Origin: a phage
DNA: 64,000 nucleotides
Assembly (NCBI GenBank): GCA_018509705.1
Contig: GCA_018509705.1_3630.1
Direction: 5' to 3' (one strand)
Shown here: in pieces, positions 20,767 to 46,049 of the stretch
Numbering within the stretch: position 1 is the first letter of the stretch
Layout of the letters: every line of letters starts with the position of its first letter
Notes under the pieces: model-generated
What the model was told of the DNA's origin: nothing
Database searches by the model: none
The model's input: only the letters and a program-made list of their open reading frames with translations
Program-made: the position numbers and the translations under genes

Positions 20767-21240
20767 TTAAATAATACCTGCAAGACCTGCGAGGCCAGTA
20801 AGAGCACCAGTGATGTTATCACGGTTGAGCCATGCATCCAGAATACCGATATCCCAGTCCAGTTGACCTACTTCGGTTCCGTAAGTCAGGTCAGGCTGTT
20901 TCTGGATCCAACCGATTGTGGAAATACCAGGGCCCTGGCTACCTTCCAGCAGAACCGGGAAGAATACCAGGCCAGTAATAGATGCCTGTTTCTGCCAGTC
21001 AGAAAGGTAAGCGTTCCATACAGAAGTGTTCTGCAAAGATACAGTCATAACACCGGATTGGTTACGGGACAGAGCCGCAGACATTTCACCATCCACACCG
21101 ACGTGAGGATAAATGTTGTCTTCGTTTCTTGAAACAACAATCTTGGTGTCAGCAGCGAAGCCAGTGACACGCTGCTGCATCAGATACAGTTTGACCTTTT
21201 TAGGGTCATACGCATAAGGAGTTAAAATTTGAGTTTCCAT
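20767..21240 (-). CDS. putative tail tube protein
   Basis: 157-aa ORF directly downstream of the 458-aa putative sheath gene; assignment by size and order only. Confidence 0.4.
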   Translation of the reverse strand: METQILTPYAYDPKKVKLYLMQQRVTGFAADTKIVVSRNEDNIYPHVGVDGEMSAALSRNQSGVMTVSLQNTSVWNAYLSDWQKQASITGLVFFPVLLEGSQGPGISTIGWIQKQPDLTYGTEVGQLDWDIGILDAWLNRDNITGALTGLAGLAGII

Positions 21241-30278: not shown

Positions 30279-30378
30279 AAGCTTTACCCCTCAAAACAGT
30301 ATAACAAAATAGCCCTCGTCAGAGGGCTAGTATCTCCAATTACTTTATTGTACCACATCTAATTAAGATTGGCAACAC

Positions 30379-31467
30379 TTAGATAAAACGCTTGAACATA
30401 GAAGGTGATGAGATTGATGGAATCACACAAGGAAGTGCTACCTCCTCTTTCTCCAGGAAATTAATCGCAGAAGCTACGCAGTCGGCCCAGTCGTCTTTTC
30501 TGTTAAATGTTGATCTTTCCCCGTTGAATTTTTCAAGTTCAGTCAGAAATGCTTCCAGAGTATCAGGATGGAAACTGGATTTTACAATCCTCACCATTCC
30601 TTGTTGGGCAAGATTGGCAAAAGGTGAGAACCTTGTCAGTTTAGACTTGTTGGAAGGCATTGGGTCTTCTTCAACCCTGAACCCTTCGGCAAGCAAGGAT
30701 CTGGAGGAGGTTAAGAACTCACTCTTACCTGCCTGCCCTGGGTCCACAGAGAAGACGATTATGCAATCATCACCATCGAACTGCGCCTGTTTCCTGATGA
30801 TCACATCTCGTTCACCAGCCTTTTTACAGAACTTGCCTTCCAGACCTGTGGAATACCTCCCGTCATCCACGTTCTCAGGACAATAATCACCGGACAGGTA
30901 ATAAAAGCCGTCGCTATCTTTACTTACCTTAATACTGGCAGTAAAGTCAGGAAATTTATTACCGGAAGTTCTCTCGGTTCCTGCCTTATCCCATGCCCTG
31001 CAAGATACTGACCCAAGAGGTACTCTATCGGCATCACGAAGGAAAGATCTTTGAAAATAGTTTGCACCCTCAGGCTTTGCAAACCAGTTACCATGGAGAA
31101 GCTGAGCTTTTTCCAGCTCTGGTAGACCTTCGAGGAAAGCAAGGTATTCTGGGTTGTCTCTCAAACAGACAGGATTATCGAATATTGTTGCGCCTATGAA
31201 CGAGAATGACAACGGTCTTGGCTTGATCTCTACGCCAAGTCCGTTAACCGTGGTGTATTTCTCTATCAACTCTTCTTTAGAGTCTCCCCAGATAAATTCA
31301 CCGTCGCGTCGGATAAAATATCTTTTCTTACCGCATTTCTCCGGATCTGGATACCCTTCATCGTCCAACCACCATCTAACCAGTTTGGCAAGCATGTGTT
31401 CTGAATCGGGGTTACAGCTGATAACCATTCTTGATGGATACTTTGACGGAGATCGCAGACGAGACAT
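30379..31467 (-). CDS. terminase large subunit, C-terminal segment (putative exon 2; true 5' boundary unknown)
   Basis: 362-aa ORF that continues the ATPase/nuclease protein begun in 32381-32809; the track start is probably not the real exon boundary. Confidence 0.55.
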   Translation of the reverse strand: MSRLRSPSKYPSRMVISCNPDSEHMLAKLVRWWLDDEGYPDPEKCGKKRYFIRRDGEFIWGDSKEELIEKYTTVNGLGVEIKPRPLSFSFIGATIFDNPVCLRDNPEYLAFLEGLPELEKAQLLHGNWFAKPEGANYFQRSFLRDADRVPLGSVSCRAWDKAGTERTSGNKFPDFTASIKVSKDSDGFYYLSGDYCPENVDDGRYSTGLEGKFCKKAGERDVIIRKQAQFDGDDCIIVFSVDPGQAGKSEFLTSSRSLLAEGFRVEEDPMPSNKSKLTRFSPFANLAQQGMVRIVKSSFHPDTLEAFLTELEKFNGERSTFNRKDDWADCVASAINFLEKEEVALPCVIPSISSPSMFKRFI

Positions 31468-32380
31468 CAGATAGTCTATCTGCTCCCATTCGAACTGTGT
31501 CGTTTATGTTCGGGCAAGGTCGCTAGTCTTGCCCCGCCATTTTCAGGCAGCTGCATGTCTCCATGCAGACCAGACTATATCTTATGAATGTGCAAATACT
31601 CTGCCGCTCTAAGAATAGTTTCCTCATCCTCTTGGAAGAAACCTAAAGCTCTGTTGCATTTATCACAAAGCAACCCTCTTACAGCACCAGTTTTATGGTC
31701 ATGATCAACACAAAAGAAATCTCTGTACCCTTGCGTCCTATACTCATCAAGAGATATTCTACAAATGGCACACTTATGATCTTGATCTGAGAGTAGACGA
31801 TAGTATTCATCTTTTGTTATGTGAAATTTCTTCTCAATCTGATAAAACTTTTCACACATCTTACACCTGTTCGTAACCAGATATACTTTACCATAGTCAC
31901 GTTTTGTGTAAAAACTATCAGCGAGCATACTTTCATGACAAGATTTGCATTCAAAAAGTTCACCTTTCTTCAGCAAGTCTTGAATAAATAATGCTGCGTC
32001 ATCTCTCTTAACCATATTTTTGTTTCTACGAGATCCACCCTTCCTGTAGTACATATAGCATTCCTTGCATGTACCTGAGTATCCATCCTTGCTCTTAGAT
32101 GATAAAAAGAAATCATCAATAGGTAGAACTCTTTGGCAATCCATACATTTTTTAGTATTACACATTCACCCTCCCGTTTCGAATCGCTTGATTCTACGTC
32201 TTTCGACTAGTCGTTGAACGTTCATCCTCTCGGATGCTTCGCTGCGGATTATCTAAATTAACACACTGTTACCATACCTTCGATCTCTCTTCGAAGCCTC
32301 TATCATGTTACCATGACAGGTTGGTGGTGTCAATAATAAAGATTTCCCCGCAATTAGGGAGGTTTTACGAGAGCTACAAA
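31468..32380 (-). mobile_element. intervening sequence in the terminase large subunit gene (putative self-splicing intron) carrying an HNH endonuclease ORF
   Basis: Lies between the in-frame stop of the ATPase segment and the C-terminal segment; contains the 31575-32165 ORF; flanks are GC-richer and stem-forming; intron class not determined. Confidence 0.45.
31575..32165 (-). CDS. HNH / endonuclease VII-like homing endonuclease
   Basis: Cys-rich N-terminus and FFCVDHDHKTGAVRGLLCDKCN motif, as in T4 gp49-type HNH nucleases. Confidence 0.65.
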   Translation of the reverse strand: MCNTKKCMDCQRVLPIDDFFLSSKSKDGYSGTCKECYMYYRKGGSRRNKNMVKRDDAALFIQDLLKKGELFECKSCHESMLADSFYTKRDYGKVYLVTNRCKMCEKFYQIEKKFHITKDEYYRLLSDQDHKCAICRISLDEYRTQGYRDFFCVDHDHKTGAVRGLLCDKCNRALGFFQEDEETILRAAEYLHIHKI

Positions 32381-32809
32381 TTAACCCTCATCGAAGCAAA
32401 CCATGGTGTACTCAAGCCCTTGATGGTTAAGCTTATCTTGTACATACTCCATGTGACAGTATTTTACAACAGCTCCCTTTTTGCTTCTATCCCACTTGCC
32501 AGTGTTCGGATCAAACCGTGGAAAAATGAACTTATGATCCTTCTCTCTGAACTTTGGCTTAATGTTTTCAGGCAGATCACTGTAAATAGCTACTGCTTTA
32601 GGCCATAGTCCACCCTCACCTTCCAACTGTGGGGTTGTTCTTCGGAACATAACCACAGAGCTGTGGGGGTCATCAATAATTTTAAGTGGCATCAACTGCA
32701 AGAGGAACGACTTGCCAGACCCTGCGGCACCGCCGATTACCAAAATATCTGCATCGTTTTCTAGGATCATCTTCTGCTTTTCAGAACACGGTCCGTAAAT
32801 CTTAGACAT
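32381..32809 (-). CDS. terminase large subunit, N-terminal ATPase segment (putative exon 1)
   Basis: Walker A ILVIGGAAGSGKSFLL and Walker B-like MVCFDEG immediately before the stop. Confidence 0.7.
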   Translation of the reverse strand: MSKIYGPCSEKQKMILENDADILVIGGAAGSGKSFLLQLMPLKIIDDPHSSVVMFRRTTPQLEGEGGLWPKAVAIYSDLPENIKPKFREKDHKFIFPRFDPNTGKWDRSKKGAVVKYCHMEYVQDKLNHQGLEYTMVCFDEG

Positions 32810-33096
32810 TAACCTCTCTCCTTTGGAAACAGTGTTCTAATATAGTCTTGCAAAATGATCAATTTAGCTCTATCATTGCTACAAGACAGATTATTATCCC
32901 TCATAATGCCAGAATTCACTGCATCTGGCGCACCTTTCTTCAAAGGCATAGCTTTAGCAGGTGGTTTCATGGCACCTTCCGGGGGTTTAACAATCAACCT
33001 TCCTACATCCGGAGGGTCAATCTTGTATTCTCTCTCAACGCTGGTTGCACACCCACATAATAACAAGCACACAATAAACAGTGTAGCAACTCTCAT
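32809..33096 (-). CDS. o-spanin-like outer-membrane lipoprotein (Rz1-like)
   Basis: Signal peptide with Cys-containing lipobox-like LLLCGCATS, Pro-rich body (KPPEGAMKPPAKAMP); 4-nt overlap with the upstream i-spanin-like gene. Confidence 0.5.
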   Translation of the reverse strand: MRVATLFIVCLLLCGCATSVEREYKIDPPDVGRLIVKPPEGAMKPPAKAMPLKKGAPDAVNSGIMRDNNLSCSNDRAKLIILQDYIRTLFPKERG

Positions 33097-33491
33097 CTAC
33101 CCTCCTGATTAATACTCTCATTATAAATATCTATAAGCTGATCAGGGAGTGTTGACTTCTTACCCTCAGGTGACTGGAGGTAAATAATCTGCTTTTCTTT
33201 ACCTGCCTTCTCAGCCATATTTAATTTATCCTGTAGATCAGAAAGGGATTTTTCAAGGTTTTTAACCTCCTCTGCGTGGCCCATTTTAATTTTGTCGGCC
33301 TGCTTTTGTTGCTGATCAAGGATCCGTTCCCACTTTAACTCTGTTGCTGACACACCTTCTTGGTAGGCATCATTAAGCTTAGAGTTAAACCAATACACGG
33401 CCCCAAGATAAGCTGTACCTATCGCAGCTGCAAAAACTAAACCTTTTATGATCCCTCTATACCTGCTCAGCCATGTTAAAACTGAAATCAT
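33093..33491 (-). CDS. i-spanin-like inner-membrane protein (Rz-like)
   Basis: N-terminal transmembrane helix (GLVFAAAIGTAYLGAVYWF) followed by coiled-coil periplasmic region. Confidence 0.5.
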   Translation of the reverse strand: MISVLTWLSRYRGIIKGLVFAAAIGTAYLGAVYWFNSKLNDAYQEGVSATELKWERILDQQQKQADKIKMGHAEEVKNLEKSLSDLQDKLNMAEKAGKEKQIIYLQSPEGKKSTLPDQLIDIYNESINQEGR

Positions 33492-33504
33492 TTTAAGGCT
33501 CCAG

Positions 33505-33545
33505 AAACGAAAAAACCCCGCAGCTATACAGCTAACGGGGCGGGT
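33505..33545 (-). terminator. hairpin plus T-run terminator
   Basis: ccccg...cgggg hairpin followed by TTTTTTCG on the minus strand. Confidence 0.4.
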
Positions 33546-33596
33546 TAAAATTGAGTAACCTAAATAGATCGAAACTAACTAAAAGGAGACTAATAC

Positions 33597-33866
33597 TTAT
33601 CGAGGCACTCGGTGGATGATTCTAACAGTAACTGCATTTTCATTCATCAAGTATGCATCTACATCTCTGTAAATATAAAACTTCTGCTCACTATCAACAA
33701 CACAAGCTACCGCCCCTTCAGAGTTGTCTTCAAAAAAGACCACCACTGCATCGCAGCTGAGTTCATGATATGACTCTCGAAGATTTACAGCCAGAGGATT
33801 GAAATCGTCACGAAAATCTACGGTATGGGTTGGATTTACACGCTCTACAATTTTAAGTGTATACAT
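33597..33866 (-). CDS. hypothetical protein
   Basis: Track ORF trimmed to the first ATG (MYTLKIVERV...) so that it no longer overlaps tRNA-Pro. Confidence 0.3.
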   Translation of the reverse strand: MYTLKIVERVNPTHTVDFRDDFNPLAVNLRESYHELSCDAVVVFFEDNSEGAVACVVDSEQKFYIYRDVDAYLMNENAVTVRIIHRVPR

Positions 33867-33912
33867 TTTAAAGGTTCCTTTTGTTTGTATATGTTTAAAG
33901 TATAACTGAAAG

Positions 33913-33989
33913 TGGTCTCCACGGAGTGATTCGAACACTCGACCTCCTGATCCCAAATCAGGCGCTCTACCAAGCTGAGCTACGCGGAG
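33913..33989 (-). tRNA. tRNA-Pro (anticodon UGG)
   Basis: Hand-folded cloverleaf: acceptor CTCCGCG, D-loop TAGCTCAG, anticodon loop TTTGGGA, T-loop GGTTCGAATC, encoded CCA. Confidence 0.8.
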
Positions 33990-34000
33990 TATTTATTATT

Positions 34001-34075
34001 TGGTGGCCCTGGGTGGAATTGAACCACCGTCTGGCGATTATGAGTCGCTTGCTTGAACCTTCCAGCTACAGGGCC
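34001..34075 (-). tRNA. tRNA with CAU anticodon (Met, or Ile2 lysidine-type)
   Basis: Acceptor GGCCCTG/CAGGGCC, anticodon arm GCGA-CTCATAA-TCGC, T-loop TTCAATT, encoded CCA. Confidence 0.75.
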
Positions 34076-34076
34076 A

Positions 34077-34152
34077 TGGTGCTGATGGCAGGACTTGAAC
34101 CTGCAACCTATTGATTACAAATCAATTGCACTACCAATTGTGCTACATCAGC
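34077..34152 (-). tRNA. tRNA-Thr (anticodon UGU)
   Basis: Acceptor GCTGATG/CATCAGC, D-stem GCAC/GTGC, anticodon arm ATTGA-TTTGTAA-TCAAT, T-arm GCAGG-TTCAAGT-CCTGC, CCA. Confidence 0.8.
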
Positions 34153-34157
34153 AAAAA

Positions 34158-34256
34158 GGTGCTAGGTGATGGAATCGAACCACCTATGTATTCAACGACT
34201 ACCTCGTCTATTTTCAGGATTAAAAATCCTCGCCCTTGCCAAAGGGCTTACCTAGC
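34158..34256 (-). tRNA. atypical tRNA-like gene (about 99 nt; isotype unresolved)
   Basis: Good acceptor (GCTAGGT/ACCTAGC) and T-arm (GGTGG-TTCGATT-CCATC), but about 24 extra nt between D and T arms; anticodon arm ambiguous (AGGAT-TTTTA-ATCCT or 4-bp stem with UUU). Confidence 0.3.
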
Positions 34257-34354
34257 TCAGTATGTTGACCATGTTGCTAGTCGGCGATGACGACTGTAAC
34301 ATTTGATAATCCGGTTCTGCTTCCGGCTTTCGCTTAATTACAAGGTCAACAATA

Positions 34355-34445
34355 TGGCTGAGGGTAATGGAATCGAACCATCATCAAGTCATCCTCAACG
34401 GGACGGTTTTCAAGACCGCTTGAGCACCATTGCTCCCTACCCTCA
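34355..34445 (-). tRNA. tRNA-Ser (anticodon UGA), long variable arm
   Basis: Acceptor TGAGGGT/ACCCTCA, anticodon arm GCGGT-CTTGAAA-ACCGT, long variable arm, T-loop TTCGATT, CCA. Confidence 0.7.
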
Positions 34446-34559
34446 TTTATAAACAATACTGATAATGACACTGATTTTCGAGCAGTTAGTGACTAGTATA
34501 AACGACGATAAATATCAATGCCATTATCTGTATGATTTATGCATTTAAAACTATAAATT

Positions 34560-34646
34560 TGGTGGGGAGTGGTGGAGTCGAACCACCCGAGTCGCAATGA
34601 CAATAGATTTACAGTCTACACCGCTACCCCTACGGGATAACTCCCC
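34560..34646 (-). tRNA. tRNA-Tyr (anticodon GUA), long variable arm
   Basis: Acceptor GGGGAGT/ACTCCCC, anticodon arm GTAGA-CTGTAAA-TCTAT, T-arm GGTGG-TTCGACT-CCACC, CCA. Confidence 0.7.
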
Positions 34647-34650
34647 AATT

Positions 34651-34725
34651 TGGCACCCCGTACTGGACTCGAACCAGTGTCAACGGCTTAGAAGGCCGCT
34701 GCTTTATCCACTAAGCTAACAGGGC
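34651..34725 (-). tRNA. tRNA-Arg (anticodon UCU)
   Basis: Acceptor GCCCTGT (two G-U pairs), D-stem GCTT/AAGC, anticodon arm GCGGC-CTTCTAA-GCCGT, T-arm ACTGG-TTCGAGT-CCAGT, CCA. Confidence 0.75.
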
Positions 34726-34821
34726 ACTGGGTGGCTTTCTTTTACACCTTAGCCGCCAGAAAAGGTGGGAGACCATGTTTACAATATTACACTGTTAAGC
34801 AAAGTTTGTCAAGAAAATATT

Positions 34822-35160
34822 TTAGCTATTGCTAACAGGTTGTATTTCTGTGGTAAATGGCATAAAAGGTGCTGGTTTTTCAGCCTCTTCTACTACCACC
34901 TCTTCCTCTTCACCAAACATCTCATCATATTCTTCCTGCATTCGGTCTGCCTTATCAAGAACATACTCTGCAATGCTTTGACGAATATTTTGTTTGGTTT
35001 TCGGGTCCAACATCAGCTCTCTTAAAACTTTGTGAGCTTCTGGAACCATCGCTATAAAAGATTCCTTCATATCAAGGATGTTCTTCTCTAGCTGAATGGC
35101 GTTGGACTCCTCTTTCAGAGGTCTGCCTCTACGGCGACGCTTTTTAGTTGTATCCGCCAT
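34822..35160 (-). CDS. hypothetical protein with basic N-terminus (KKRRRRGRP) and acidic C-terminus
   Basis: Track ORF trimmed to the ATG preceded by GGAGGA. Confidence 0.35.
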   Translation of the reverse strand: MADTTKKRRRRGRPLKEESNAIQLEKNILDMKESFIAMVPEAHKVLRELMLDPKTKQNIRQSIAEYVLDKADRMQEEYDEMFGEEEEVVVEEAEKPAPFMPFTTEIQPVSNS

Positions 35161-35504
35161 GTTTCCTCCATTATCACGTGATAGGTGGATTTTATCATAG
35201 CAAATACTGATTGTCAAGTTCGCCGCAGGGTGGTATTCCCTGCGACTTGTCCAGCGTCCTGGACCAGCAAGACCCAACAAGTGGGTTACCAGAGCCCATT
35301 ACCGCACTTTGGCTCGACCTTATTACAGGTTGGCTGGGGTCACATCGTCATGTGCTGGCTGCCCCTACCATTTTAAGTGTGGTGCACTATCAAGCCCTCT
35401 AAGGGGAACTCAGCCTTCTCCGAACCCTGTTTCAAAGCATCCGGAGATAAAGCCATCAAATTCATCTTTAAATTGGATATTCATCATGATACACGAAAAC
35501 AACC

Positions 35505-35747
35505 TCATTGTAAAGCACAAATAAATAAAACATACTTAATTTGTTTGTTATCAGGCTCAGGGTAGAAGTAGAAGATCTTGCTATCACCGATCTGAACACC
35601 ACCATCCCAACAGCATAGCCCATAACCCGTATTCATACAAGCTAAGTCGTTGGCAAAATCTATTGCATCATCCAGTGCACGAAATTCACCTTCATCTTCT
35701 AAATAATCCTCATTCATGGAACGAAAAACGAGCTTAACCTTAAACAT
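35505..35747 (-). CDS. hypothetical protein
   Basis: ORF track. Confidence 0.3.
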   Translation of the reverse strand: MFKVKLVFRSMNEDYLEDEGEFRALDDAIDFANDLACMNTGYGLCCWDGGVQIGDSKIFYFYPEPDNKQIKYVLFICALQ

Positions 35748-35823
35748 AGCATTACCTGTAGACCTCGTAAGTTAAAATTGCATCACATCATATTGCAGAT
35801 CTTATCAGGTAACACTATTTTTG

Positions 35824-36033
35824 TCAACAGATTCCGGCCTTATCCTTCCTGTCTGCGTATTCTTTAATCGCAACCTCATCTGCATTAGTGACCAGGTCTT
35901 CAAAGTAACTCTCAAGCTCCTCGTCAATGTCAGGAGACCAGCTCTTTTTCCTGTCAGTGTGAATTGCAGACTTGTTGAACTTATTACAGTTCTTTGCTAC
36001 CGGGTTGTTCATTAAGCGCTCCTCAGCGTTCAT
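35824..36033 (-). CDS. hypothetical protein
   Basis: ORF track; overlaps the upstream gene end. Confidence 0.25.
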   Translation of the reverse strand: MNAEERLMNNPVAKNCNKFNKSAIHTDRKKSWSPDIDEELESYFEDLVTNADEVAIKEYADRKDKAGIC

Positions 36034-36601
36034 AGTAAATCTTATTTAACATTACCTCATCCTTTGCAGAAAGGATATCAAGATATGCATCACCAAATCT
36101 TCCTGCAACAACCTCTGCATGATACATCACTTCGTTAACATCGTCAAGAGTGATAACCGGATGACCATATCTTTCTGAATATTGTCTCAGGGTGCGATGT
36201 AACGAGTCGTCATCATATGCAGACTTTTTAATATCACAAACACGACGAATAGCCTTGATGTCGAAAAAACCTGTGCGATACCACCCAAGAAAAAGGTTTC
36301 GTGCAGTGTCAACATCTACATTGATACCATCAAGAACCTTATCTACAAGATAGCTGTCATCCTTTGGACCAGCGTCCTTAGTGCGAATGTAGTTGCCATC
36401 TTTTCCAGGCGACATCTCCTTCTCATCCCCAACCTGAATGCCATCATTTGGCGGTGTTAGCCACTTATCCGGATGCTTACGATCACGAGCGTTAGAATGA
36501 TTACGCTGGAAACCGGGCTTCCACTTGAAAGTTTTCTCCATCTGTTCTTCATTCTGATAACGTTTTGCAATCTTTTCACGGTCATCTTTGCGTGAACCCA
36601 T
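36023..36601 (-). CDS. hypothetical protein
   Basis: ORF track; GGAGG-like site upstream. Confidence 0.35.
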   Translation of the reverse strand: MGSRKDDREKIAKRYQNEEQMEKTFKWKPGFQRNHSNARDRKHPDKWLTPPNDGIQVGDEKEMSPGKDGNYIRTKDAGPKDDSYLVDKVLDGINVDVDTARNLFLGWYRTGFFDIKAIRRVCDIKKSAYDDDSLHRTLRQYSERYGHPVITLDDVNEVMYHAEVVAGRFGDAYLDILSAKDEVMLNKIYYER

Positions 36602-37104
36602 AGCTGCCTCCTCTTCAAGTTATAGAAAAACTAACTGTATCGCTTTGTAACGAGCTTTTCTATCAAACTGGTGCGATTGCATTACCTGGTATAGTTTATA
36701 TAGCTGTGGAGCGATTTAGGTGCCTTCTTGTCCGTTTCCACACATAAACTTCATCCAAGCTCGCGCGGGAGACTCTCAACCGACTCCTTCCGGCGCTGGC
36801 AAGCTTTCGTCGGTGGTCCACATCAGTGCTCGGCCTTTGGCCTGCGCTATCGCTTCGCTCTCACACATGTTAACAGACCTGCATGTATGCACTTCTGTTA
36901 TTGTGTGCACCAGGGAGGCCCGGCATCTCGCCCCTCGTAGGCGAGTGCCAATGAAGGGCCGACACTACCCATAGTAAGTAATAAATTTAAAACATGGTAC
37001 TTAGGATCTAATATATTCTACATAAGTTAAGTATATGTACTTAGTACCATAAGTACTAGATCTTTTGTTTTTTATTATTTAGTTATTTTAGTTATATTCT
37101 TTAT

Positions 37105-37148
37105 GTGTCCGTATCACGGACAGTTAGTGTCCGTATTACGGACAGTTA
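37105..37148. repeat. two tandem 22-bp palindromic units (candidate operator or iteron sites)
   Basis: gtgtccgtatcacggacagtta then gtgtccgtattacggacagtta; each contains the 7-bp inverted repeat TGTCCGT/ACGGACA; AT-rich agttatttt repeats just upstream. Confidence 0.5.
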
Positions 37149-37219
37149 CTAACCTCTGTTCCAGAGCGAACATAAAACATACGAATCCTTATAGTACAGA
37201 TATTTAAGTTTTTACTGGT

Positions 37220-37570
37220 CTAACCAGTTGTTGACATTCGAATAACTTCTTCTGGTGGCAAAACTTTGGAAAATGTGCATCTTTTACCTCTCCCTTGTGT
37301 GGATATTTCAACCACTCCCGCACATTCTAAAGTTTTAACGCACGCTGCTGCTTTTGTTTTCTTTATTCCAACATCTGCTGCAATTTTCCTTGTGCTGGGT
37401 GTGAAGCGTGAACTTCCTCCAAGCTTATACCAGTTGTGCAGGTAGCAGTATACGATCTTGTCATACAAGTCAAGAACAACAACCTCCCCAGTTGTGTCAT
37501 TCAAAACTTTTGACATAGATAGTATTTCAAGGGGGACTTTAAGATATAGCAGCTTATCCCCATCTTTCAT
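37220..37570 (-). CDS. hypothetical protein with helix-turn-helix-like segment
   Basis: STRKIAADVGIKKTKAAACVKTLECAGVVEIS resembles a winged-helix/HTH DNA-binding segment; weak. Confidence 0.3.
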   Translation of the reverse strand: MKDGDKLLYLKVPLEILSMSKVLNDTTGEVVVLDLYDKIVYCYLHNWYKLGGSSRFTPSTRKIAADVGIKKTKAAACVKTLECAGVVEISTQGRGKRCTFSKVLPPEEVIRMSTTG

Positions 37571-37617
37571 ATCTCCTGATTCTCCTTGTGTGGCAATTTT
37601 CTTTAAAATAGCAGGGA

Positions 37618-38172
37618 TTACTCCCCGCTGTCAATAGCAAAACTCATTGCAATACGGTATGCCTCTTCTAATGGTAAGAGTCTCCCCCACACATCCCAAC
37701 CGACATCAAACTGTCTGCCAAACAACTGTTGTGTGGTTCCGTGAGCATGACCGAACAGTTGGACTGATCCGTGAGGCTTTCTGTTCCACTTTGCAAACTG
37801 GTAATGGCTCATACAGATCAAATTCTTGTTGTGGCGAAGCTCGTAATAATCTACAACCTCATGACCGAACTCTTTCATAATTCTGACAGTCGTCCTTGTG
37901 TCATGGTTACCACGAACAAGAATAATATGTCCGTTCAACATATTTAGAACATCTGGGAGCAATTTGTTGATATTCTTATCATTAGTGCACGCAATATCTC
38001 CCAAGTGAAACACAGTGTCTGCAGGTGACACAACAGAGTTCCACTTGGTGATGATTCCCGCATTCATACTGTCAAGATTGTGATCATACTGAGATCTGTG
38101 TTTTTGACATGAGTCGAACTCCATGACCCGCTGGTGGAGAAAGTGTGTGTCGCTTGTTACAAAGTATTTCAT
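37618..38172 (-). CDS. calcineurin-like metallophosphoesterase (possible polynucleotide 3'-phosphatase)
   Basis: Motifs VTSDTHF, GDIACTNDKN and LVRGNHD; track ORF trimmed to the ATG just downstream of the kinase stop. Confidence 0.55.
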   Translation of the reverse strand: MKYFVTSDTHFLHQRVMEFDSCQKHRSQYDHNLDSMNAGIITKWNSVVSPADTVFHLGDIACTNDKNINKLLPDVLNMLNGHIILVRGNHDTRTTVRIMKEFGHEVVDYYELRHNKNLICMSHYQFAKWNRKPHGSVQLFGHAHGTTQQLFGRQFDVGWDVWGRLLPLEEAYRIAMSFAIDSGE

Positions 38173-38179
38173 ACATTCC

Positions 38180-38590
38180 TCATTTAAGTTTAATGCAGTT
38201 TTTAAGCTGGCGTTCCATACGATCCACAACCCTGTCTGGAACATCATGAATGCTTTTATTACCATGGCGGTTTTCAACCACGATCACGGTATAACTATAC
38301 CCATGACTGATCGCCATGTCAATATATTCTTGCACATATTTTTCTTTTGTAAACGTATTACTTACCACGATACGGTCGTATCCCATACGCATCATATCTT
38401 CTACGTTATCTTTGCACCATTTTGCTGCAAGTGTTACTTTACTTGCATCCCAGTTGTAATTTCCATCATCGTCGTACCAGAACATGTCGTTCTCAAAATG
38501 TGGATACAGACCTTCTAAAGATAGCGCATTTGCCAGTGTTGATTTGCCAGACCCTGGTAGACCACGCACGATATATAGCATTTTAGACAT
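38180..38590 (-). CDS. P-loop kinase (polynucleotide kinase-like)
   Basis: Walker A MLYIVRGLPGSGKSTLA close to the N-terminus; start placed at the ATG preceded by GGAGGA. Confidence 0.5.
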   Translation of the reverse strand: MSKMLYIVRGLPGSGKSTLANALSLEGLYPHFENDMFWYDDDGNYNWDASKVTLAAKWCKDNVEDMMRMGYDRIVVSNTFTKEKYVQEYIDMAISHGYSYTVIVVENRHGNKSIHDVPDRVVDRMERQLKNCIKLK

Positions 38591-38650
38591 AGTAATCCTC
38601 CGTTTTAATTTCAACGATAGTATACCCAACTGTTTTGTTAATTTCAAGTG

Positions 38651-38680
38651 TTGACACTAGGTTATTTGTGTGGCAGGATA
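38651..38680 (+). promoter_or_regulatory. candidate sigma70-like promoter for the plus-strand early gene block
   Basis: TTGACA at 38651-38656; downstream -10 is weak (caggat/gataga), so the call is tentative. Confidence 0.3.
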
Positions 38681-38690
38681 GACTGACAAA

Positions 38691-39626
38691 ATGACAAATG
38701 AGGAATGTATAATGAAGTATTTTAATGCAGACGACCTAGTTGACAAAGGTCTTGTAACCAGCAGATATTACCCAGATCTTGGGTTAAAGATCTATAAATA
38801 TGCCAGAAAAGTATTCTACAACAACTTATGGCATTTGTCTCCTCGATTACTGGAGTGCCGAGGCATTGTTGTCGGTAATGAAGGAAATGTTGTGGCATGG
38901 CCCTTCACAAAAGTGTTTAACTTGGGAGAAAACTCCACCAACCTGCCTGACAATAAGCTTGTGACGGCGGTAGAGAAAAAGAACGGATTCCTTGGTGTGG
39001 TGTCATCTCATAAAGGTGAACTATTGTTCTCAACAACCGGGTCTCTTGATTCTCCATATTGTAACCTTGCAAAGGAAACCATCCAGGAGCAATGCAGTAA
39101 TTTAGATCTTATCAAGAAGGTTATGGGCAATGAAAACATGACATTCATGTTTGAAATTTGTCACCCTTCAGATCCGCATATTGTTCAGGAAGATCATGGT
39201 GCATATTTGATAGGTTGCAGATATAATGATTCTGGAATAATGCTACCAGAAGCAGCTTTAGATGGGATTGCCAAATACCTTGGTGCAAAACGTCCTCACA
39301 CTGTGCGTGAAATTCCGTTCAGTTATGCAAAAGAATTGGCTGCAGAAACAAGAGGTGAAGGGTATATGATTCGTAAGCCTTACTACCCTTATGATCTGCA
39401 GCTGAAGATTAAGTCTCCATACTATCTGGCACGGAAGGCCGTAATGAGGGGTAAAGCTTGGAAGATTTGGGATGATGATATCTTTAAACGTGTTGACGAA
39501 GAGTTTTACGGCATGGTAAACTTCATTCGTAACAACTACACAGAGGATGTATGGAACTGCCTCCTGGAGCAGGAACGCCGTGAGATACTTGATTACTATT
39601 TCCACAACGAGAACTATATGCAATGA
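38691..39626 (+). CDS. RNA ligase (nucleotidyltransferase superfamily)
   Basis: Motif I-like VEKKNGF, motif IV-like GEGYMIRKP, motif V-like LQLKIKSP; adjacent to kinase/phosphatase and the tRNA cluster. Confidence 0.55.
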   Translation: MTNEECIMKYFNADDLVDKGLVTSRYYPDLGLKIYKYARKVFYNNLWHLSPRLLECRGIVVGNEGNVVAWPFTKVFNLGENSTNLPDNKLVTAVEKKNGFLGVVSSHKGELLFSTTGSLDSPYCNLAKETIQEQCSNLDLIKKVMGNENMTFMFEICHPSDPHIVQEDHGAYLIGCRYNDSGIMLPEAALDGIAKYLGAKRPHTVREIPFSYAKELAAETRGEGYMIRKPYYPYDLQLKIKSPYYLARKAVMRGKAWKIWDDDIFKRVDEEFYGMVNFIRNNYTEDVWNCLLEQERREILDYYFHNENYMQ

Positions 39627-39973
39627 AGAAGTTGATTGTGTGGCTAGATGACTTGAGAGATCCGTCAAATTATGGGCTCCCAGACGCTATTTGGCTAAAG
39701 AATTCCTCCGAGTTTATGGATTTTATTAACGATAATAAAAAGCTCTACAGACGCGTTTCTGAGTGGCATATGGACAACGACCTTGGAGAGGTATTCGAAG
39801 GGTACGATTGCCTATCCATGTTGGAGGAAAAGTTTGTATTTGGTAAGCCTCCTGTAGTTGACAACGTGAAGATTTTCGTGCATACTTCTAACCCATCAGC
39901 GGCTCGTAAATTCATGCTTGCGACTGACTCGTTTAAAAAGTTTGGAATAGAGATTAAACAAAACATCTACTGA
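39623..39973 (+). CDS. hypothetical protein (116 aa)
   Basis: ORF track; overlaps the RNA ligase stop and precedes the Sir2-like gene. Confidence 0.4.
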   Translation: MKKLIVWLDDLRDPSNYGLPDAIWLKNSSEFMDFINDNKKLYRRVSEWHMDNDLGEVFEGYDCLSMLEEKFVFGKPPVVDNVKIFVHTSNPSAARKFMLATDSFKKFGIEIKQNIY

Positions 39974-39981
39974 GGACACTT

Positions 39982-40743
39982 ATGCGACGACTGATTGTTA
40001 TCTCCGGTGCTGGTTTGAGTGCTGAATCTGGTATTCCCACTTTCCGATCTGGTAGCACTGCAATGTGGGAGAATTTCAGCATCGATGAGGTGTGCAACAT
40101 CCACACCTTTGCCAAGAACTACTATAAGGTGCATGACTTTTACAATGCACGTCGTGTAGCTTTAGGCAGTGTTGAGCCTAACCTTGCACATCTTCGGATC
40201 GCTGAGTGGTATTCCCGCTGGTCTGGTCGTGTGATCAACCTTACCACCAATGTAGATGATTTGCTGGAGCGTGCTGGTGTAAAACATGAAGATATTTTAC
40301 ATGTCCACGGGTATTTGCCAGAAATAGTCTATGAGGACGATGAAGGAAGTGACGTCATTAAGGACATTGGATACTCTGAGGTAGACGCAGGAAAGTATAC
40401 CTGGGTTAAGCCTAATGTGGTGTTCTTCGGAGAAGTAGCTCCGAAGTATACAGACATGTATGACCTGTTGACTTCTCTTACGAGCAATGATATGGTTATC
40501 CTTGTAGGGTGCTCCAACACAGTTATCAATTTTAACTGGGAGCTATTCCCTGCCTGCAATAAGGGAACCAAACTACTGATCGTTAATAAATACGACTCAC
40601 AGCATCTAGAGGAGAATGGCATTTCACGTAGTGATATTTACCAGTATGAGGATCGCGGCATCCCAGTTTGGTTTAACGGTGCGGTTGATGCCTTCTCTGA
40701 TAAAACATTCATTGAGACTGTAGAAAACTTTATGGAACTTTAA
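39982..40743 (+). CDS. Sir2-family NAD-dependent deacylase / ADP-ribosyltransferase-like protein
   Basis: N-terminal GAGLSAESGIPTFRSG motif and HVHG catalytic-His motif; Zn-ribbon cysteines not evident. Confidence 0.65.
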   Translation: MRRLIVISGAGLSAESGIPTFRSGSTAMWENFSIDEVCNIHTFAKNYYKVHDFYNARRVALGSVEPNLAHLRIAEWYSRWSGRVINLTTNVDDLLERAGVKHEDILHVHGYLPEIVYEDDEGSDVIKDIGYSEVDAGKYTWVKPNVVFFGEVAPKYTDMYDLLTSLTSNDMVILVGCSNTVINFNWELFPACNKGTKLLIVNKYDSQHLEENGISRSDIYQYEDRGIPVWFNGAVDAFSDKTFIETVENFMEL

Positions 40744-40756
40744 AAGGAGACCTTTA

Positions 40757-41470
40757 ATGCTGAATACTAAATTAATTGACAACCTGGAAAAACTATCCCA
40801 ACCTGAAAACTACCTTTGGTCTGCCAACTGGGTGGAAAACTGGAACCGTGTGGCAGCTAAAGTGAAAAAATCATACACACCATTCGAATTACAGCTTAGC
40901 TTCATTGAGGAAGAGTTCAATGAAGTTTTGGAAGAGCTGGAGAAAGGTGATGGTGGAGATCACCTGCTAAAAGAGGCCTGCGATCTTCACGTTGTCACAA
41001 GTTATGCAGCTTATCTTGTTAATGACAATCACGAAAAGTGGTCAAACCTGTTTGATAATCCACGAGGTCTTAAGTTCAAGATCGGTGAGTTCTATGACAC
41101 ACTGATCGCTGCGAAAAACACATCCAAGCAAAGAGCGTCAGCTTACCGTTTAGCGGAGTTGTCAACAGCTTTGCTGTTCCAGCTTCGCGGCGATGTGTGC
41201 GGGATGATGCGTAAGGTTCTCAAATCGAATGACAGCAAGTTTGCACGGGTCAACCATCTACGGTATTCACACGGTGCCAGTGCAGATATGCCTGCTGAAC
41301 AACTCATCGAGTTGGAGATTAAAGATCTTGAGCGACGCTTTGATGGTCGATATGAAGGTTTTGTTGCTAAGGAAGAATTCTACAACGGTAATAAAGTTAT
41401 CATATTCCTCGACAGTAAAGGTAAGATTATGAAGCCTTCAAGCTTCAAGGATGTAACAGAATATATTTAA
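40757..41470 (+). CDS. hypothetical protein, possible MazG-like nucleotide pyrophosphohydrolase domain
   Basis: Glu-rich segment SFIEEEFNEVLEELEKGD...LKEACDL resembles all-alpha NTP pyrophosphatase metal-binding motifs; weak. Confidence 0.3.
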   Translation: MLNTKLIDNLEKLSQPENYLWSANWVENWNRVAAKVKKSYTPFELQLSFIEEEFNEVLEELEKGDGGDHLLKEACDLHVVTSYAAYLVNDNHEKWSNLFDNPRGLKFKIGEFYDTLIAAKNTSKQRASAYRLAELSTALLFQLRGDVCGMMRKVLKSNDSKFARVNHLRYSHGASADMPAEQLIELEIKDLERRFDGRYEGFVAKEEFYNGNKVIIFLDSKGKIMKPSSFKDVTEYI

Positions 41471-41477
41471 TAATATA

Positions 41478-41505
41478 GCCGGGGCGATCCCGGCTTTACT
41501 TGTTT
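41478..41505 (+). terminator. hairpin plus T-rich tail
   Basis: gccggggcgatcccggc followed by tttacttgttt. Confidence 0.4.
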
Positions 41506-41534
41506 CGGAAAGTATGCAAGTGAGGTAGAAAGTT

Positions 41535-41843
41535 ATGTACAAGCACTCCAGAGATCTTGAAAACGATGCTGTGTTTGGGGATCAGATGAAAGAATTGGTT
41601 AAACTTATAGGTAGGATAGAGGATAAGTTTGACACTAAGATCTACATCGACAGCAAAGTATTCAACCACAAAATATGGACAAATCTGTGTGTTGGACTAC
41701 ATGGAGATAAAGATGTGGTAAATTTAGTTGTAATTAAGTTCATAGTGTGGCAGAATAAAACTATAAATTATTACGATCCACACCTGCTTGTTTACCCGAT
41801 AAAAGACCTATTAGAGAAGGAGGACTGCAATGCCGTTATTTAA
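41535..41843 (+). CDS. hypothetical protein
   Basis: ORF track; AGGTAGAAAG-type RBS. Confidence 0.35.
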   Translation: MYKHSRDLENDAVFGDQMKELVKLIGRIEDKFDTKIYIDSKVFNHKIWTNLCVGLHGDKDVVNLVVIKFIVWQNKTINYYDPHLLVYPIKDLLEKEDCNAVI

Positions 41844-42099
41844 TCTTGCTAAACCTGTAGAAGCACACCAGTTTGACGGAAGCTCTTCATCAGTATCTGA
41901 TCTGCAACGGTGGATTGATACAGGTGTGTTTACATCGTCACCTGTTCGGACCAGAGATCTTCGTCGTATGTGTGAGCTTGTAGAGCCGTTTGGTAACCTA
42001 GTCTTGTACCAGGGTGATTGGCTTGTTGATTTTATGGGTGACTGGTTGGTAATGAGTAAAGAAGAGATGTTTAAAATTTTTAAGGAAGAGGTAGAGTAA
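41830..42099 (+). CDS. hypothetical protein
   Basis: ORF track; coupled to neighbours. Confidence 0.35.
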   Translation: MPLFNLAKPVEAHQFDGSSSSVSDLQRWIDTGVFTSSPVRTRDLRRMCELVEPFGNLVLYQGDWLVDFMGDWLVMSKEEMFKIFKEEVE

Positions 42100-43364
42100 T
42101 GCATCAATTCAAAACAACACTTTATGCTCGCAATAAAGACGGGTCCATCCAGATGTGGAAAGTAGATACAAGCGGCAACGAGGTTATTGTTGTGTTCGGC
42201 AGGGTTGGTGGCGCTGTACAATCAAAAACCACAAAATGTGAAGCCAAAAACATCGGGCGATCCAACGAAACTACAGCAGAAGAACAAGCTGTTTTAGAGG
42301 CGCAGTCTAAATGGGAAAAGCAAGTCCGGCTGGGTTACAAAGAAAATGTCGAAGACCTTGAGGCCATTGACATTTCACCTATGCTGGCGCAAGATGCTTC
42401 GAAAAAACCACACGCTATTGTGTATCCATGCCACCTGCAACACAAACTTGACGGGAACCGTTGCTTTGTCAAATTCGTAGACGGTGTACCTAAATTCATC
42501 TCTCGCGGTAACAAAGTGTATGAGCCGAAAGGTAACATCCTCCGTGAGCTACAAGACCTGCATGAAGAAACAGGCTTTGATGAATTTGATGGGGAGTTCT
42601 ACATTCACGGTTTACCGTTGCAGAAAATAACCTCCCTCGTTAAGAAATGGCGTAGTCTGGAAGACATTGAGAAAGAAATTGATAAGGATTTCATGGCAGA
42701 CATAAAACGCCGTGAGAAAGCGATCAAGGCCGGAGAGGAGACATGGAAAGACTTCAACAAGGTTGATCATCCGGTTTATGAAGAACCTGTCCGTGATTCT
42801 GATCGGTATGGAGGTTACTGCTCTTATGACCTGAAACTGATGGTGTTCGATGTTCCTGATTGCATCCATCGCTGGGAAGATCGGGCCACAAATCTTCAGG
42901 AAGTTATTGATTATTGTGAAGTTAACCATCTCACAAACGTCGAGGGTGTTCCTTTCAAGATCGCCTACAACGAGGAAGAGGTTCGCAACTCCATCGGACA
43001 GTACATGCAGGAAGGTTATGAAGGATCTATTATTCGTAACTTCTGTGGCACCTACGAATACGGTCAACGCTCTACTGATCTGCTCAAGTGGAAACTGTTC
43101 ACCGATGTTGAAGCAAAAGTGATCGGTGTTGAAAAAGATAAAAACGGGGAAGGTGTTCTTATCTGCGAAGAGAAAGATGGGACACAATGCAAATGCAAAA
43201 TGAAAGGCACTTTTGCCGTAAGGAACTACGAAAAATGCTGCTCATATGTTGGCAAATTTATCACGATAAAATTCCAACAGCGTACGGTGGACGGTGTGCC
43301 TCAATTCCCTGTGGGTATCGCATTCCGCAATCTTAATCCAGAAACTTGGGAGGTGCTGGAATAA
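42099..43364 (+). CDS. ATP-dependent DNA ligase
   Basis: Adenylation motif I PCHLQHKLDGNRCF (KxDGxR) and further nucleotidyltransferase motifs; 421 aa. Confidence 0.7.
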   Translation: MHQFKTTLYARNKDGSIQMWKVDTSGNEVIVVFGRVGGAVQSKTTKCEAKNIGRSNETTAEEQAVLEAQSKWEKQVRLGYKENVEDLEAIDISPMLAQDASKKPHAIVYPCHLQHKLDGNRCFVKFVDGVPKFISRGNKVYEPKGNILRELQDLHEETGFDEFDGEFYIHGLPLQKITSLVKKWRSLEDIEKEIDKDFMADIKRREKAIKAGEETWKDFNKVDHPVYEEPVRDSDRYGGYCSYDLKLMVFDVPDCIHRWEDRATNLQEVIDYCEVNHLTNVEGVPFKIAYNEEEVRNSIGQYMQEGYEGSIIRNFCGTYEYGQRSTDLLKWKLFTDVEAKVIGVEKDKNGEGVLICEEKDGTQCKCKMKGTFAVRNYEKCCSYVGKFITIKFQQRTVDGVPQFPVGIAFRNLNPETWEVLE

Positions 43365-43487
43365 TGTAGGAAGGTCTAGTAGGTAACGGTAACCAATTGA
43401 ATGATGGTTTTCAATTGGCACCTACATAACCACACTATGCAGTGTTGTTGATCGGGTTAGTTATGAGTAAACTGGAGAGTATGAAAA

Positions 43488-43976
43488 ATGAAACTTGATA
43501 AAAATGTTCAACGAAAAGCTTTCTTGGATATGATCGCATATTCGGAAGGAACAGATAATGGTAGACAACCTACCAAGGATCGGGGGTACGATGTCATAGT
43601 CGGCGGCAAGCTGTTCAGCGATTACAGCAAGCATCCCGGTGTTTACGTTAAGCTAAATGCTAAACTTACCTCCTCCGCTGCTGGGCGTTACCAGGTTTTG
43701 GAGAAGTTTGCTAAACACTACATGAAACAGTTAGGATTACCAGATTTTGGCCCTGCCAGTCAGGACAAGATTGCGTTGCAACTGATCCGTGAGTGCAAGG
43801 CTCTCGCCGACATTGATGAAGGGCGTATTCATCAGGCCATTTATAAATGCCGCAGCCGCTGGGCAAGCTTCCCACCACCGCCAGGGGCTGGAAAGCTGTA
43901 CAATCAGCGAGCAGAAAGTATAGACAAGATGCTGGAGATCTTTAAGAGGGCAGGTGGAGTTGTTACAGATGAGTAA
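43488..43976 (+). CDS. endolysin, lambda R-type lytic transglycosylase
   Basis: N-terminus QRKAFLDMIAYSEGTDNGRQPTKDRGYDVIVGG closely parallels the lambda R N-terminus recalled from memory. Confidence 0.8.
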   Translation: MKLDKNVQRKAFLDMIAYSEGTDNGRQPTKDRGYDVIVGGKLFSDYSKHPGVYVKLNAKLTSSAAGRYQVLEKFAKHYMKQLGLPDFGPASQDKIALQLIRECKALADIDEGRIHQAIYKCRSRWASFPPPPGAGKLYNQRAESIDKMLEIFKRAGGVVTDE

Positions 43977-44649
43977 CGGGATTGACTGGTGGAGTGTCTT
44001 TAGATACGATACAGGCACTGGAAGGTTGTTTTGGAAGTCCCCACCAAAAAACAAACCTCAACTAATGGGAAAGGAGGCTGGATGTACTAACAACGGGTAC
44101 AGGGATATAGTCTATCGTGGCGTGCATTACTACAGGCATAGATTGGTGTGGGAGATGCATTATGGACCAATCCCAGAAGGGTACGAAGTTGATCACATAA
44201 AGCCACTTTTCTATTCCGACGGTGTTGCGGATGATAGGGTAGAAAACCTACAACTGTTAACACCAGAAGAAAATGCAAAAAAGGCGGCAGATGACGGATG
44301 CCTGGCACGCAAGATACCTAAATCCAATACTGGACATTTGGGTGTATATTTTCATGCTAGATCTGGAAGGTATGCTGCTTTTGGTAAGGTAGGTCATTAC
44401 TATAAGAAAGACCTAGGAGAATACGATACCTTAGAAGAGGCCATTGCTGCTCAAAAGTCTTTTGAAAGTGGCACGTTTGTCAGGGAATATCGTGGACAGC
44501 CTTTAGGGAGGGATAAATCTAGAGGTGTCAGATTTGAAGCAGATAGGGGCAAATGGAAAGTAACTTTCAGAGGAAAAACGCTAGGCAGGTTTGACACCAA
44601 AGAGTCTGCTGAAGCGTGTTACGCAAAGGCTCTTACTGAAAGCTTGTAA
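43969..44649 (+). CDS. HNH homing endonuclease with AP2-like DNA-binding domain
   Basis: HNH_3-type core (YRHRLVWEMHYGPIPEGYEVDHIKP...ENLQLLTPEEN) then AP2-like segment; start placed at the ATG overlapping the endolysin stop. Confidence 0.6.
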   Translation: MSNGIDWWSVFRYDTGTGRLFWKSPPKNKPQLMGKEAGCTNNGYRDIVYRGVHYYRHRLVWEMHYGPIPEGYEVDHIKPLFYSDGVADDRVENLQLLTPEENAKKAADDGCLARKIPKSNTGHLGVYFHARSGRYAAFGKVGHYYKKDLGEYDTLEEAIAAQKSFESGTFVREYRGQPLGRDKSRGVRFEADRGKWKVTFRGKTLGRFDTKESAEACYAKALTESL

Positions 44650-44717
44650 CAGTATCATTGACATAACCACACGGACGTGGTATTGTCACCTCATAAAATG
44701 TTTGAGAGGGTTTAACC

Positions 44718-44924
44718 ATGAAAGATTTTCTGTTGGCAATTTTGTTCATGGCGGCATGTCTGGCCTGTGGTGTAGTGTTTGCAGGTGAAACAGCGTATCT
44801 TGTCGATGTATATCGGGACAATGGTAAACGTATTTGCCTTTATGAGACAAGCCAAGGTGAGCTCTACGAACTTGTGAAACAAGGAGAGGCAGGTTCCTGC
44901 CCTCGTACCCATTTCTTTGAATGA
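44718..44924 (+). CDS. small secreted or lipoprotein-like protein (68 aa)
   Basis: N-terminal hydrophobic signal-like segment with Cys (LLAILFMAACLACGVVFAG). Confidence 0.3.
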   Translation: MKDFLLAILFMAACLACGVVFAGETAYLVDVYRDNGKRICLYETSQGELYELVKQGEAGSCPRTHFFE

Positions 44925-44933
44925 GGAGGATAC

Positions 44934-45398
44934 GTGGAAGACGGACGTTTAATGAAGTCTGAACGCAGGCTTATTGTGCAACTGATCCCAGAAACAGCTT
45001 GGTATAATAACCTCCGAAACGCTGTAAAGAAGAGTGAGTGGGATAAGATCCGCAAGAAGTGCTATAGAGAAGCCAACTACACCTGTGAGGTGTGCGGCGG
45101 TAAAGGCAGCAAACACCCAGTGGAGTGTCATGAACTTTACACTTTCGAAGAGGGAGTGATCCGGCTTGTCGGACTGATAGCGTTGTGCCCAGATTGTCAC
45201 ACATCGGTGCATCCTGGGTTAGCAAATATTCGTGGAAAGTATGCTCAGGCAGTTAATCAGTTGGCTAAGGTGAATAAGATCACCAGAGGTATGGCAGAGG
45301 CGTATTACCGAGACTGCTTTGCAGAGTGGCGCGAGCTTAGTAAAGTTCCAGAATGGAAGACTGACTTTTCGTGGATAGAGGATTACCTTGATGGCTAA
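44934..45398 (+). CDS. hypothetical Cys/His-rich protein (possible zinc-binding nuclease)
   Basis: CEVCGG...HPVECHELY...ALCPDCHTSVH cluster. Confidence 0.3.
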   Translation: MEDGRLMKSERRLIVQLIPETAWYNNLRNAVKKSEWDKIRKKCYREANYTCEVCGGKGSKHPVECHELYTFEEGVIRLVGLIALCPDCHTSVHPGLANIRGKYAQAVNQLAKVNKITRGMAEAYYRDCFAEWRELSKVPEWKTDFSWIEDYLDG

Positions 45399-45681
45399 GA
45401 GATCTGTAAAAGAGAAATTCGATAAGACAGCTTTTGTATTCGATACACCTCTGGACGATATCATCAGAGGTATGCAAGCCTTGTATCGGAAGGCTGAATC
45501 TGAGCAGTTGTCTGAATCAGAACTTTACTGGCTTGGTTGGTGGGAGTTAAACCTGCCTAGAGCTGAAAGTTCTTGTCTGAGAACTGTTAAAACGTGCGCC
45601 CAAGAAAACGCTGCACTTGGAATCTACCACAAAAGGAAAAGATCAACAAAAAGCTCTCCAAGAAAGACTAAAAAGTCTTGA
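45388..45681 (+). CDS. hypothetical protein with basic C-terminal tail
   Basis: ORF track. Confidence 0.3.
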   Translation: MMAKRSVKEKFDKTAFVFDTPLDDIIRGMQALYRKAESEQLSESELYWLGWWELNLPRAESSCLRTVKTCAQENAALGIYHKRKRSTKSSPRKTKKS

Positions 45682-45707
45682 CAAAAGTGTTATTAATCTG
45701 ATATTAT
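45678..45707 (+). promoter_or_regulatory. sigma70-like promoter (TTGACA-18-TATTAT)
   Basis: cTTGACAaaagtgttattaatctgaTATTATcgg upstream of the 45741 gene. Confidence 0.45.
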
Positions 45708-45740
45708 CGGTCAGATATCTATAAACTAGGAGAACTAGAT

Positions 45741-46049
45741 ATGCTTAAAATTTTTATTGTTGAAGATAAAGATATTGTCCAGTTGTATGCAAACGAGAAT
45801 CATAAAGGTATGATTCTGAAGAAGGCAAGCAACCTTCATGAAAACACAATTCAACCTGGCGATGTAATTAAGATCTGTGGTTATATGATACCAGACTCCT
45901 TGATGAAAATAACCCACCACTGGGGGTCTAATCCGTTCCTTTTTGAAAAGTATTGGGATGTTGAGTCACTTATTGCAGAGAGTGATGATGCATTCCATTA
46001 CAGCATCCAACCATCTTGCAGAATAACTAACAGGAGGGTCTTTGAGTAG
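45741..46049 (+). CDS. hypothetical protein
   Basis: ORF track; AGGAG RBS. Confidence 0.35.
   Translation: MLKIFIVEDKDIVQLYANENHKGMILKKASNLHENTIQPGDVIKICGYMIPDSLMKITHHWGSNPFLFEKYWDVESLIAESDDAFHYSIQPSCRITNRRVFE

Follow-up and report, generated by a model that had tools for sequence, protein, structure and literature searches.

Dispersed lysis genes in a 64-kb stretch of an rV5-like phage and a holin probably encoded elsewhere in the genome

The 64,000-nucleotide (nt) stretch of phage DNA considered here (GenBank assembly GCA_018509705.1, contig GCA_018509705.1_3630.1; termed the window throughout) carries a spanin gene pair on its minus strand and, about 10 kb away on its plus strand, an endolysin gene followed by an HNH endonuclease gene and an open reading frame (ORF) of 68 amino acids (aa); our concern is with this dispersed lysis set and with the whereabouts of the holin needed to complete it. 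To judge by its sequence, the window is part of a Vequintavirus, the genus of rV5-like myoviruses of E. coli: a megablast search of a phage collection with region 32000-45500 matched Escherichia phage rV5 (NC_011041) at 93% coverage and 96.5% identity, many further Vequintavirus genomes matched similarly, rV5 and its relatives being about 96-97% identical across the region, and gene order and orientation agree with the annotations of rV5 and of phage nom. Offsets place the window at about 27.6-89 kb on the rV5 genome, which measures 137.9 kb. The sign of the guanine-cytosine skew changes near 38.6 kb, with minus-strand genes before this point and plus-strand genes after it.

Lysis genes on the two strands

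Hydrophobicity was scanned with Kyte-Doolittle (KD) windows of 19 aa at KD≥1.6 and of 17 aa at KD≥1.1, rather than with TMHMM/SignalP, in all coding-strand ORFs of 30 aa or more across the 64 kb, nested ORFs included. The i-spanin gene (33093..33491, minus strand; gp068 of rV5) encodes 132 aa that match phrog_4297, 'Rz-like spanin', at E=1.5e-49. Its product has a single N-terminal hydrophobic peak at about residues 13-32, preceded by R/K and read as a transmembrane domain (TMD), and the remainder forms a charged, helix-prone domain predicted to be periplasmic. The o-spanin gene (32809..33096, minus strand; gp067 of rV5) encodes 95 aa matching phrog_1267, also an 'Rz-like spanin', at E=1.3e-22. 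It has a lipobox, LCGC, that fits the pattern [ILMFTV][^REKD][GAS]C, with Cys16 the residue predicted to be lipidated and Ala, not Asp, at position +2; the mature part, of 80 aa, is Pro-rich (9 Pro) and has one further periplasmic Cys (C72). The i-spanin stop overlaps the o-spanin start by 4 nt, and the o-spanin stop overlaps the start of terL, the large terminase gene, by 1 nt. In the relatives nom and Murica the same pair is annotated as i-spanin and o-spanin, and the 'rv5' spanin family has been catalogued under the separated architecture (PMC6139136). An earlier note on this DNA, made from the letters alone, had placed a spanin-like pair just upstream of the terminase on the minus strand; both genes are indeed there, with PHROG spanin matches, and examination of their topology, which that note had proposed as a check, bore out both the lipobox of the one and the N-terminal TMD of the other. 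TMD, lipobox and adjacency together are those of a two-component spanin of the Rz/Rz1 type in its separated architecture, and we predict that the pair acts as one.

The endolysin gene (43488..43976, plus strand; gp085 of rV5) lies about 10 kb from the spanins, as the same note had it, and encodes a 162-aa homologue of the lambda R lytic transglycosylase (GH104). Matches were to PDB entries 1AM7 (E=3.7e-49, residues 4-160) and 3D3D (E=6e-49) and to the endolysin family phrog_90 (E=8e-52); no Pfam-A match was obtained at E≤0.01. Neither Pfam-A nor NCBIfam returned a match for the spanins, the endolysin or the 68-aa protein, and families were assigned instead through PHROGs and a sequence search of the PDB. 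The endolysin motif 'YSEGTD' (E20) aligns with 'WSEGTD' (E19) of lambda R, whose Glu19 we take to be the catalytic Glu of lambda lysozyme. At neither KD threshold does the protein show an N-terminal hydrophobic, signal-arrest-release (SAR) or signal segment. It is, on these matches, a soluble enzyme of the lambda R type, and as such would depend on a holin for its release. The 123-nt gap between the DNA ligase gene and the endolysin gene contains no ORF.

Neither scan detected a small protein with two or three TMDs anywhere in the window. Convincing membrane-like products number three in the 64 kb, the two spanins and the 68-aa protein; all other hits were either short out-of-frame ORFs within known genes or soluble proteins with weak peaks. 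The lysis genes had already been described in the earlier note as dispersed, with no holin-like protein of two or three TMDs nearby; the scans extend this negative from the neighbourhood to the entire window, and revealed no canonical holin next to the endolysin. Because a soluble endolysin needs a holin and the 64 kb encode none, the holin would be expected elsewhere in the genome.

The 68-residue protein and its HNH neighbours

The 68-aa ORF (44718..44924, plus strand) corresponds to gp086 of rV5, annotated there as 'contains transmembrane domain', and matches phrog_4641 (E=4e-28), a family labelled as of unknown function. Its hydrophobic segment peaks at KD 2.7, and residues 1-22 form a predicted cleavable Sec signal peptide (..VFA/GE, the slash marking the cut), followed by a 46-aa beta-rich domain. 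A protein-database search yielded 11 close relatives with uninformative names, and distant homologues, at 35-38% identity, occur in Serratia phage ChuuTotoro and Salmonella phage SSBI34. When these and the close relatives are aligned, the hydrophobic N-terminus proves variable and the C-terminal 45 residues nearly invariant, two Cys of the C-terminal domain (C40 and C61) being present throughout; a small-residue -3/-1 motif before residue 23 is likewise conserved (VFA/G, AWS/G, ASA/S, AHA/G). We considered a lipoprotein and rejected it: the Cys residues in the hydrophobic segment are not conserved. An AlphaFold2 model (mean predicted local distance difference test score, pLDDT, 81.6) has a single helix at the N-terminus and then a beta domain of four strands, for which a Foldseek search of the PDB gave nothing significant, the best hits, at E 0.06, being generic small beta-barrels.

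The ChuuTotoro and SSBI34 homologues lie in the same interval between ligase and exonuclease genes, and no endolysin was found near them, either among the six neighbours scanned or among the annotated neighbours. The gene right after DNA ligase in these two phages (1763-2221 in locus L007, 1712-2167 in locus L008) encodes a 'membrane protein' of about 150 aa (phrog_12581); in Vequintavirus that position is taken by the R-type endolysin.

A sigma-70-like promoter (44658..44686, plus strand; TTGACA, 17 nt, TG-TATTGT), corresponding to the annotated P90 of rV5, lies in the 68-nt gap before the 68-aa gene, 31 nt from its start. From the alignment and the model, we read the protein as a periplasmic mini-protein that is secreted by the Sec route and probably has a disulfide bond; this host-type promoter may drive its expression.

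A free-standing HNH homing-endonuclease gene (43969..44649, plus strand) separates the endolysin gene from the 68-aa gene. Its ORF opens at a GTG at 43954, and starting from the more probable ATG at 43969 it overlaps the endolysin 3' end by 8 nt, in keeping with the overlap described before. The product has an HNH_3 domain (PF13392, E=1.9e-13) and an AP2-like DNA-binding domain (E=7e-6, below the Pfam cut-off), and matches phrog_99 at E=5e-49. The gene is absent from rV5 and present in nom; in rV5 and most relatives the endolysin and 68-aa genes are direct neighbours, and the HNH DNA occurs in 11 phage records as against 124 with the 68-aa protein. In a three-way alignment, about 680 bases common to the window and nom but lacking in rV5 end exactly before the TTGACA of the promoter. 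On this distribution the HNH gene is a sporadic mobile insertion that parts the endolysin gene from the 68-aa gene, its usual neighbour. The endolysin itself is mosaic: residues 1-115 are identical to those of rV5 gp085, the final 45 or so differ, with five residues inserted (PPP..KL), and the divergent 3' part (43830-43976, plus strand) adjoins the HNH insertion, a pattern that co-conversion next to a homing endonuclease would give. A second, unrelated HNH endonuclease gene (44934-45398, plus strand; phrog_5200, E=1e-72; gp087 of rV5) follows directly after the 68-aa gene, which in the window is thus flanked by two HNH genes.

Where the holin may lie

For a view of the other half of the genome, rV5 was reassembled from five annotated stretches and scanned for membrane proteins. 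Its small membrane proteins (ORF129/gp124, gp029, gp031 and others) all fall outside the region covered by the window. ORF129 (rv5_gp124; rV5 94058-94294), located about 4-5 kb past the window's 3' end, encodes a protein of 78 aa that has two strong TMDs and, at its C-terminus, a Lys/Arg-rich stretch. Its 116 records all belong to the genus, with identities of 53 to 100%, and it diverges faster than its surroundings. This two-TMD protein is the putative holin (gp129) proposed by Kropinski et al. in 2013 (PMC3606486), who described it as distant from a lone lysin. The other protein to be considered is gp029 (phrog_1322; rV5 20937-21203), 88 aa long in a family of about 85 aa; its two TMDs are moderate and its C-terminal end is charged. 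Members are 33-52% identical across Vequintavirinae, Stephanstirmvirinae, Plateaulakevirus and a Pseudomonas phage, and always lie within the baseplate and tail-fibre module, loci L009-L011 included. In T4 the holin gene t adjoins tail-fibre gene 38, and for this reason the position of the gp029 gene is suggestive.

Comparison of ten rV5 membrane proteins from outside the window with PHROGs and Pfam assigned none to a holin family, and no T-holin homologue was found among the rV5 membrane proteins scanned. A 'T-type holin' described in a 2026 preprint was considered as a possible Vequintavirus protein and set aside, the phage in question being a Tequatrovirus. The rV5 genome also encodes rIIA and rIIB, and, next to rIIA, gp002 (1980-2480), a SleB-like hydrolase (PF07486 Hydrolase_2, E=2e-19) with an N-terminal hydrophobic signal or anchor, a second muralytic enzyme, which may be virion-associated, of SAR type or accessory.

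The reading we favour, at a probability of roughly 85%, is that the window holds part of an ordinary T4-style dispersed lysis set of a Vequintavirus, that its holin is encoded outside the window and that the 68-aa protein is not that holin. The soluble transglycosylase, encoded in the plus-strand DNA-metabolism block, would build up harmlessly in the cytoplasm, and the spanin pair, at the head of terL in the minus-strand structural block, would be transcribed late. Release of the endolysin would require a holin from the other half of the approximately 137-kb genome, the best candidates being the 78-aa two-TMD protein of ORF129 and the gp029 family; the HNH gene would be a mobile homing endonuclease that has landed between the endolysin and 68-aa genes.

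Several points weigh against this reading or parts of it. That the holin lies elsewhere is something we infer, no holin having been demonstrated for any Vequintavirus. TMDs and signal peptides were called from hydropathy and alignment rather than with dedicated predictors, and the promoter at 44658-44686 is a consensus match in a region where such matches are no more numerous than in shuffled sequence. As to the candidates, the loop between the two TMDs of ORF129 is strongly positive (RRKVK) and fits poorly with the N-in/C-in topology of class II holins, and the gp029 family could equally consist of morphogenetic factors.

The 68-aa ORF had been singled out in the earlier note as the only small membrane-like candidate, and the part of that description which stands is that no other lies near the endolysin. 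Acting as a single-TMD holin anchored in the inner membrane, it might release the neighbouring endolysin, a role that would suit its strongly hydrophobic segment and its place immediately downstream of the endolysin gene in most relatives. The features of the protein are nevertheless those of a secreted protein. In a holin the TMD is expected to be the conserved, functional part, followed by a charged cytoplasmic C-terminal tail; here conservation is lowest in the hydrophobic segment, at whose end stands a signal-peptidase motif of the AxA type, and in place of the tail is the conserved beta-rich domain with its two invariant Cys, which would be periplasmic. Linkage to the endolysin is seen in Vequintavirus, the homologues in other Vequintavirinae (ChuuTotoro and SSBI34) keeping their position with no endolysin adjacent; the gene appears to have a sigma-70-like promoter of its own; phrog_4641 bears no holin label; and the annotations of rV5, Murica and LL12 do not name the protein as one. 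A holin would show the opposite of this combination of variable signal segment and conserved periplasmic domain, so the 68-aa ORF is very unlikely to encode a holin, and we give that explanation scarcely any weight. Neither do we set much store by a lysis that dispenses with a canonical holin, begun by the SleB-like hydrolase gp002 or by some other route and with the R-type enzyme secondary, which we consider highly doubtful: gp002 does carry its hydrolase domain behind a hydrophobic signal or anchor, and repeated expert annotation has found no holin, but the R-type endolysin, conserved in the genus and with no export signal, would be useful only given a membrane lesion, a holin may be among the several uncharacterised small membrane proteins of the genome, and gp002, itself encoded outside the window, could be a virion or accessory enzyme.

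There is also the thought that the holin is elsewhere and that the 68-aa protein assists lysis or superinfection control from the periplasm, for instance as an RI-like antiholin or as a Spackle-like inhibitor of a muralytic enzyme. Its small size, predicted secretion and probable disulfide would fit, as would an early-type promoter (again by consensus match) and the endolysin as neighbour in Vequintavirus, and the presence of rIIA and rIIB in rV5 points to T4-like lysis control. We nonetheless regard this role as unlikely, in that neither sequence nor structure resembles RI, Spackle, Ivy or Pli/Mli, the Foldseek search having gone no further than E 0.06, and the adjacency to the endolysin is lost in the distant homologues. 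The more particular proposal that the 46-aa domain of phrog_4641 is a new periplasmic lysis-timing or anti-muralytic factor, antiholin-like or endolysin-inhibiting and tied to the Vequintavirus holin, is distinctly unlikely and is put forward as speculation. What the analysis does achieve, for a genus that finds wide use in biocontrol and phage therapy, is to remove the 68-aa ORF as a serious holin candidate and to point instead to the ORF129-type protein and the gp029 family.

The terminase locus and comparison with known systems

The first exon of terL (32381..32809, minus strand) follows the spanin pair directly and belongs to the same block of late-strand genes. The gene as a whole (30379-32809, minus strand) is interrupted: in comparison with nom, whose terL is continuous, it has an 887-nt insertion at 31498-32384, which contains an endonuclease VII-type ORF (31575-32165; PF02945, E=2e-21). 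In rV5 the insertion at this site does not include the endonuclease ORF, and terL has a second, HNH-containing intron, at the position equivalent to 31183/31184, that the window lacks. No Rfam model fitted the terL intron at gathering score, a scan of 30000-46000 returning tRNAs only. A 99-nt tRNA-like gene (34158-34256, minus strand) in a seven-gene tRNA cluster was called by ARAGORN with an undetermined four-base anticodon and scores 35.5 bits with the Rfam tRNA model; it is annotated as tRNA-OTHER in nom and is unannotated in rV5.

The dispersed layout of the lysis genes of rV5-like phages and the gap where a holin should be are already known, and have been in print since 2013: the lysin of rV5 was described as separated from the putative holin 'as in phage T4' (PMC3606486), and the genome announcements of LL12 and Gotham state that a holin could not be identified. 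The window closely resembles rV5: genes, gene order and gene orientation are shared at a DNA identity of about 96-97%, with the spanins upstream of terL, the R-type lysin after DNA ligase and the 68-aa protein next, and no holin beside the lysin; it differs in the HNH gene between lysin and 68-aa gene, in the divergent C-terminus of the lysin and in the intron content of terL. In CB7, rV5 and PVP-SE1 the spanin pair adjoins the large terminase gene, outside any lysis cassette (PMC7344957), and the Certrevirus CB7, PVP-SE1 and other Vequintavirinae share with the window this placement, the want of a classic cassette and a holin that is hard to identify (PMC7344957). These phages have other types of endolysin. 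In CB7 a two-TMD candidate of 65 aa overlaps the SleB-like gene; no equivalent ORF was seen beside gp002 of rV5.

With lambda the likeness is in the proteins: the endolysin is a close homologue of R, and the two-component spanin is built on the Rz/Rz1 principle. The arrangement differs, in that there is no S-R-Rz/Rz1 cassette and no S-like holin before the R-type gene, and the spanin genes, separated and not embedded, are 10 kb off on the other strand. It is T4 that the arrangement recalls, with endolysin, holin and spanins at separate loci (in T4: e, t, pseT.3/pseT.2, rI and rIIA/B), spanin genes of the 'separated' kind in which the i-spanin stop touches the o-spanin start, and rIIA and rIIB in the rV5 genome. 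The differences from T4 are that the endolysin is a lambda R-type transglycosylase where T4 has the E-type lysozyme, and that the spanin genes here abut terL.

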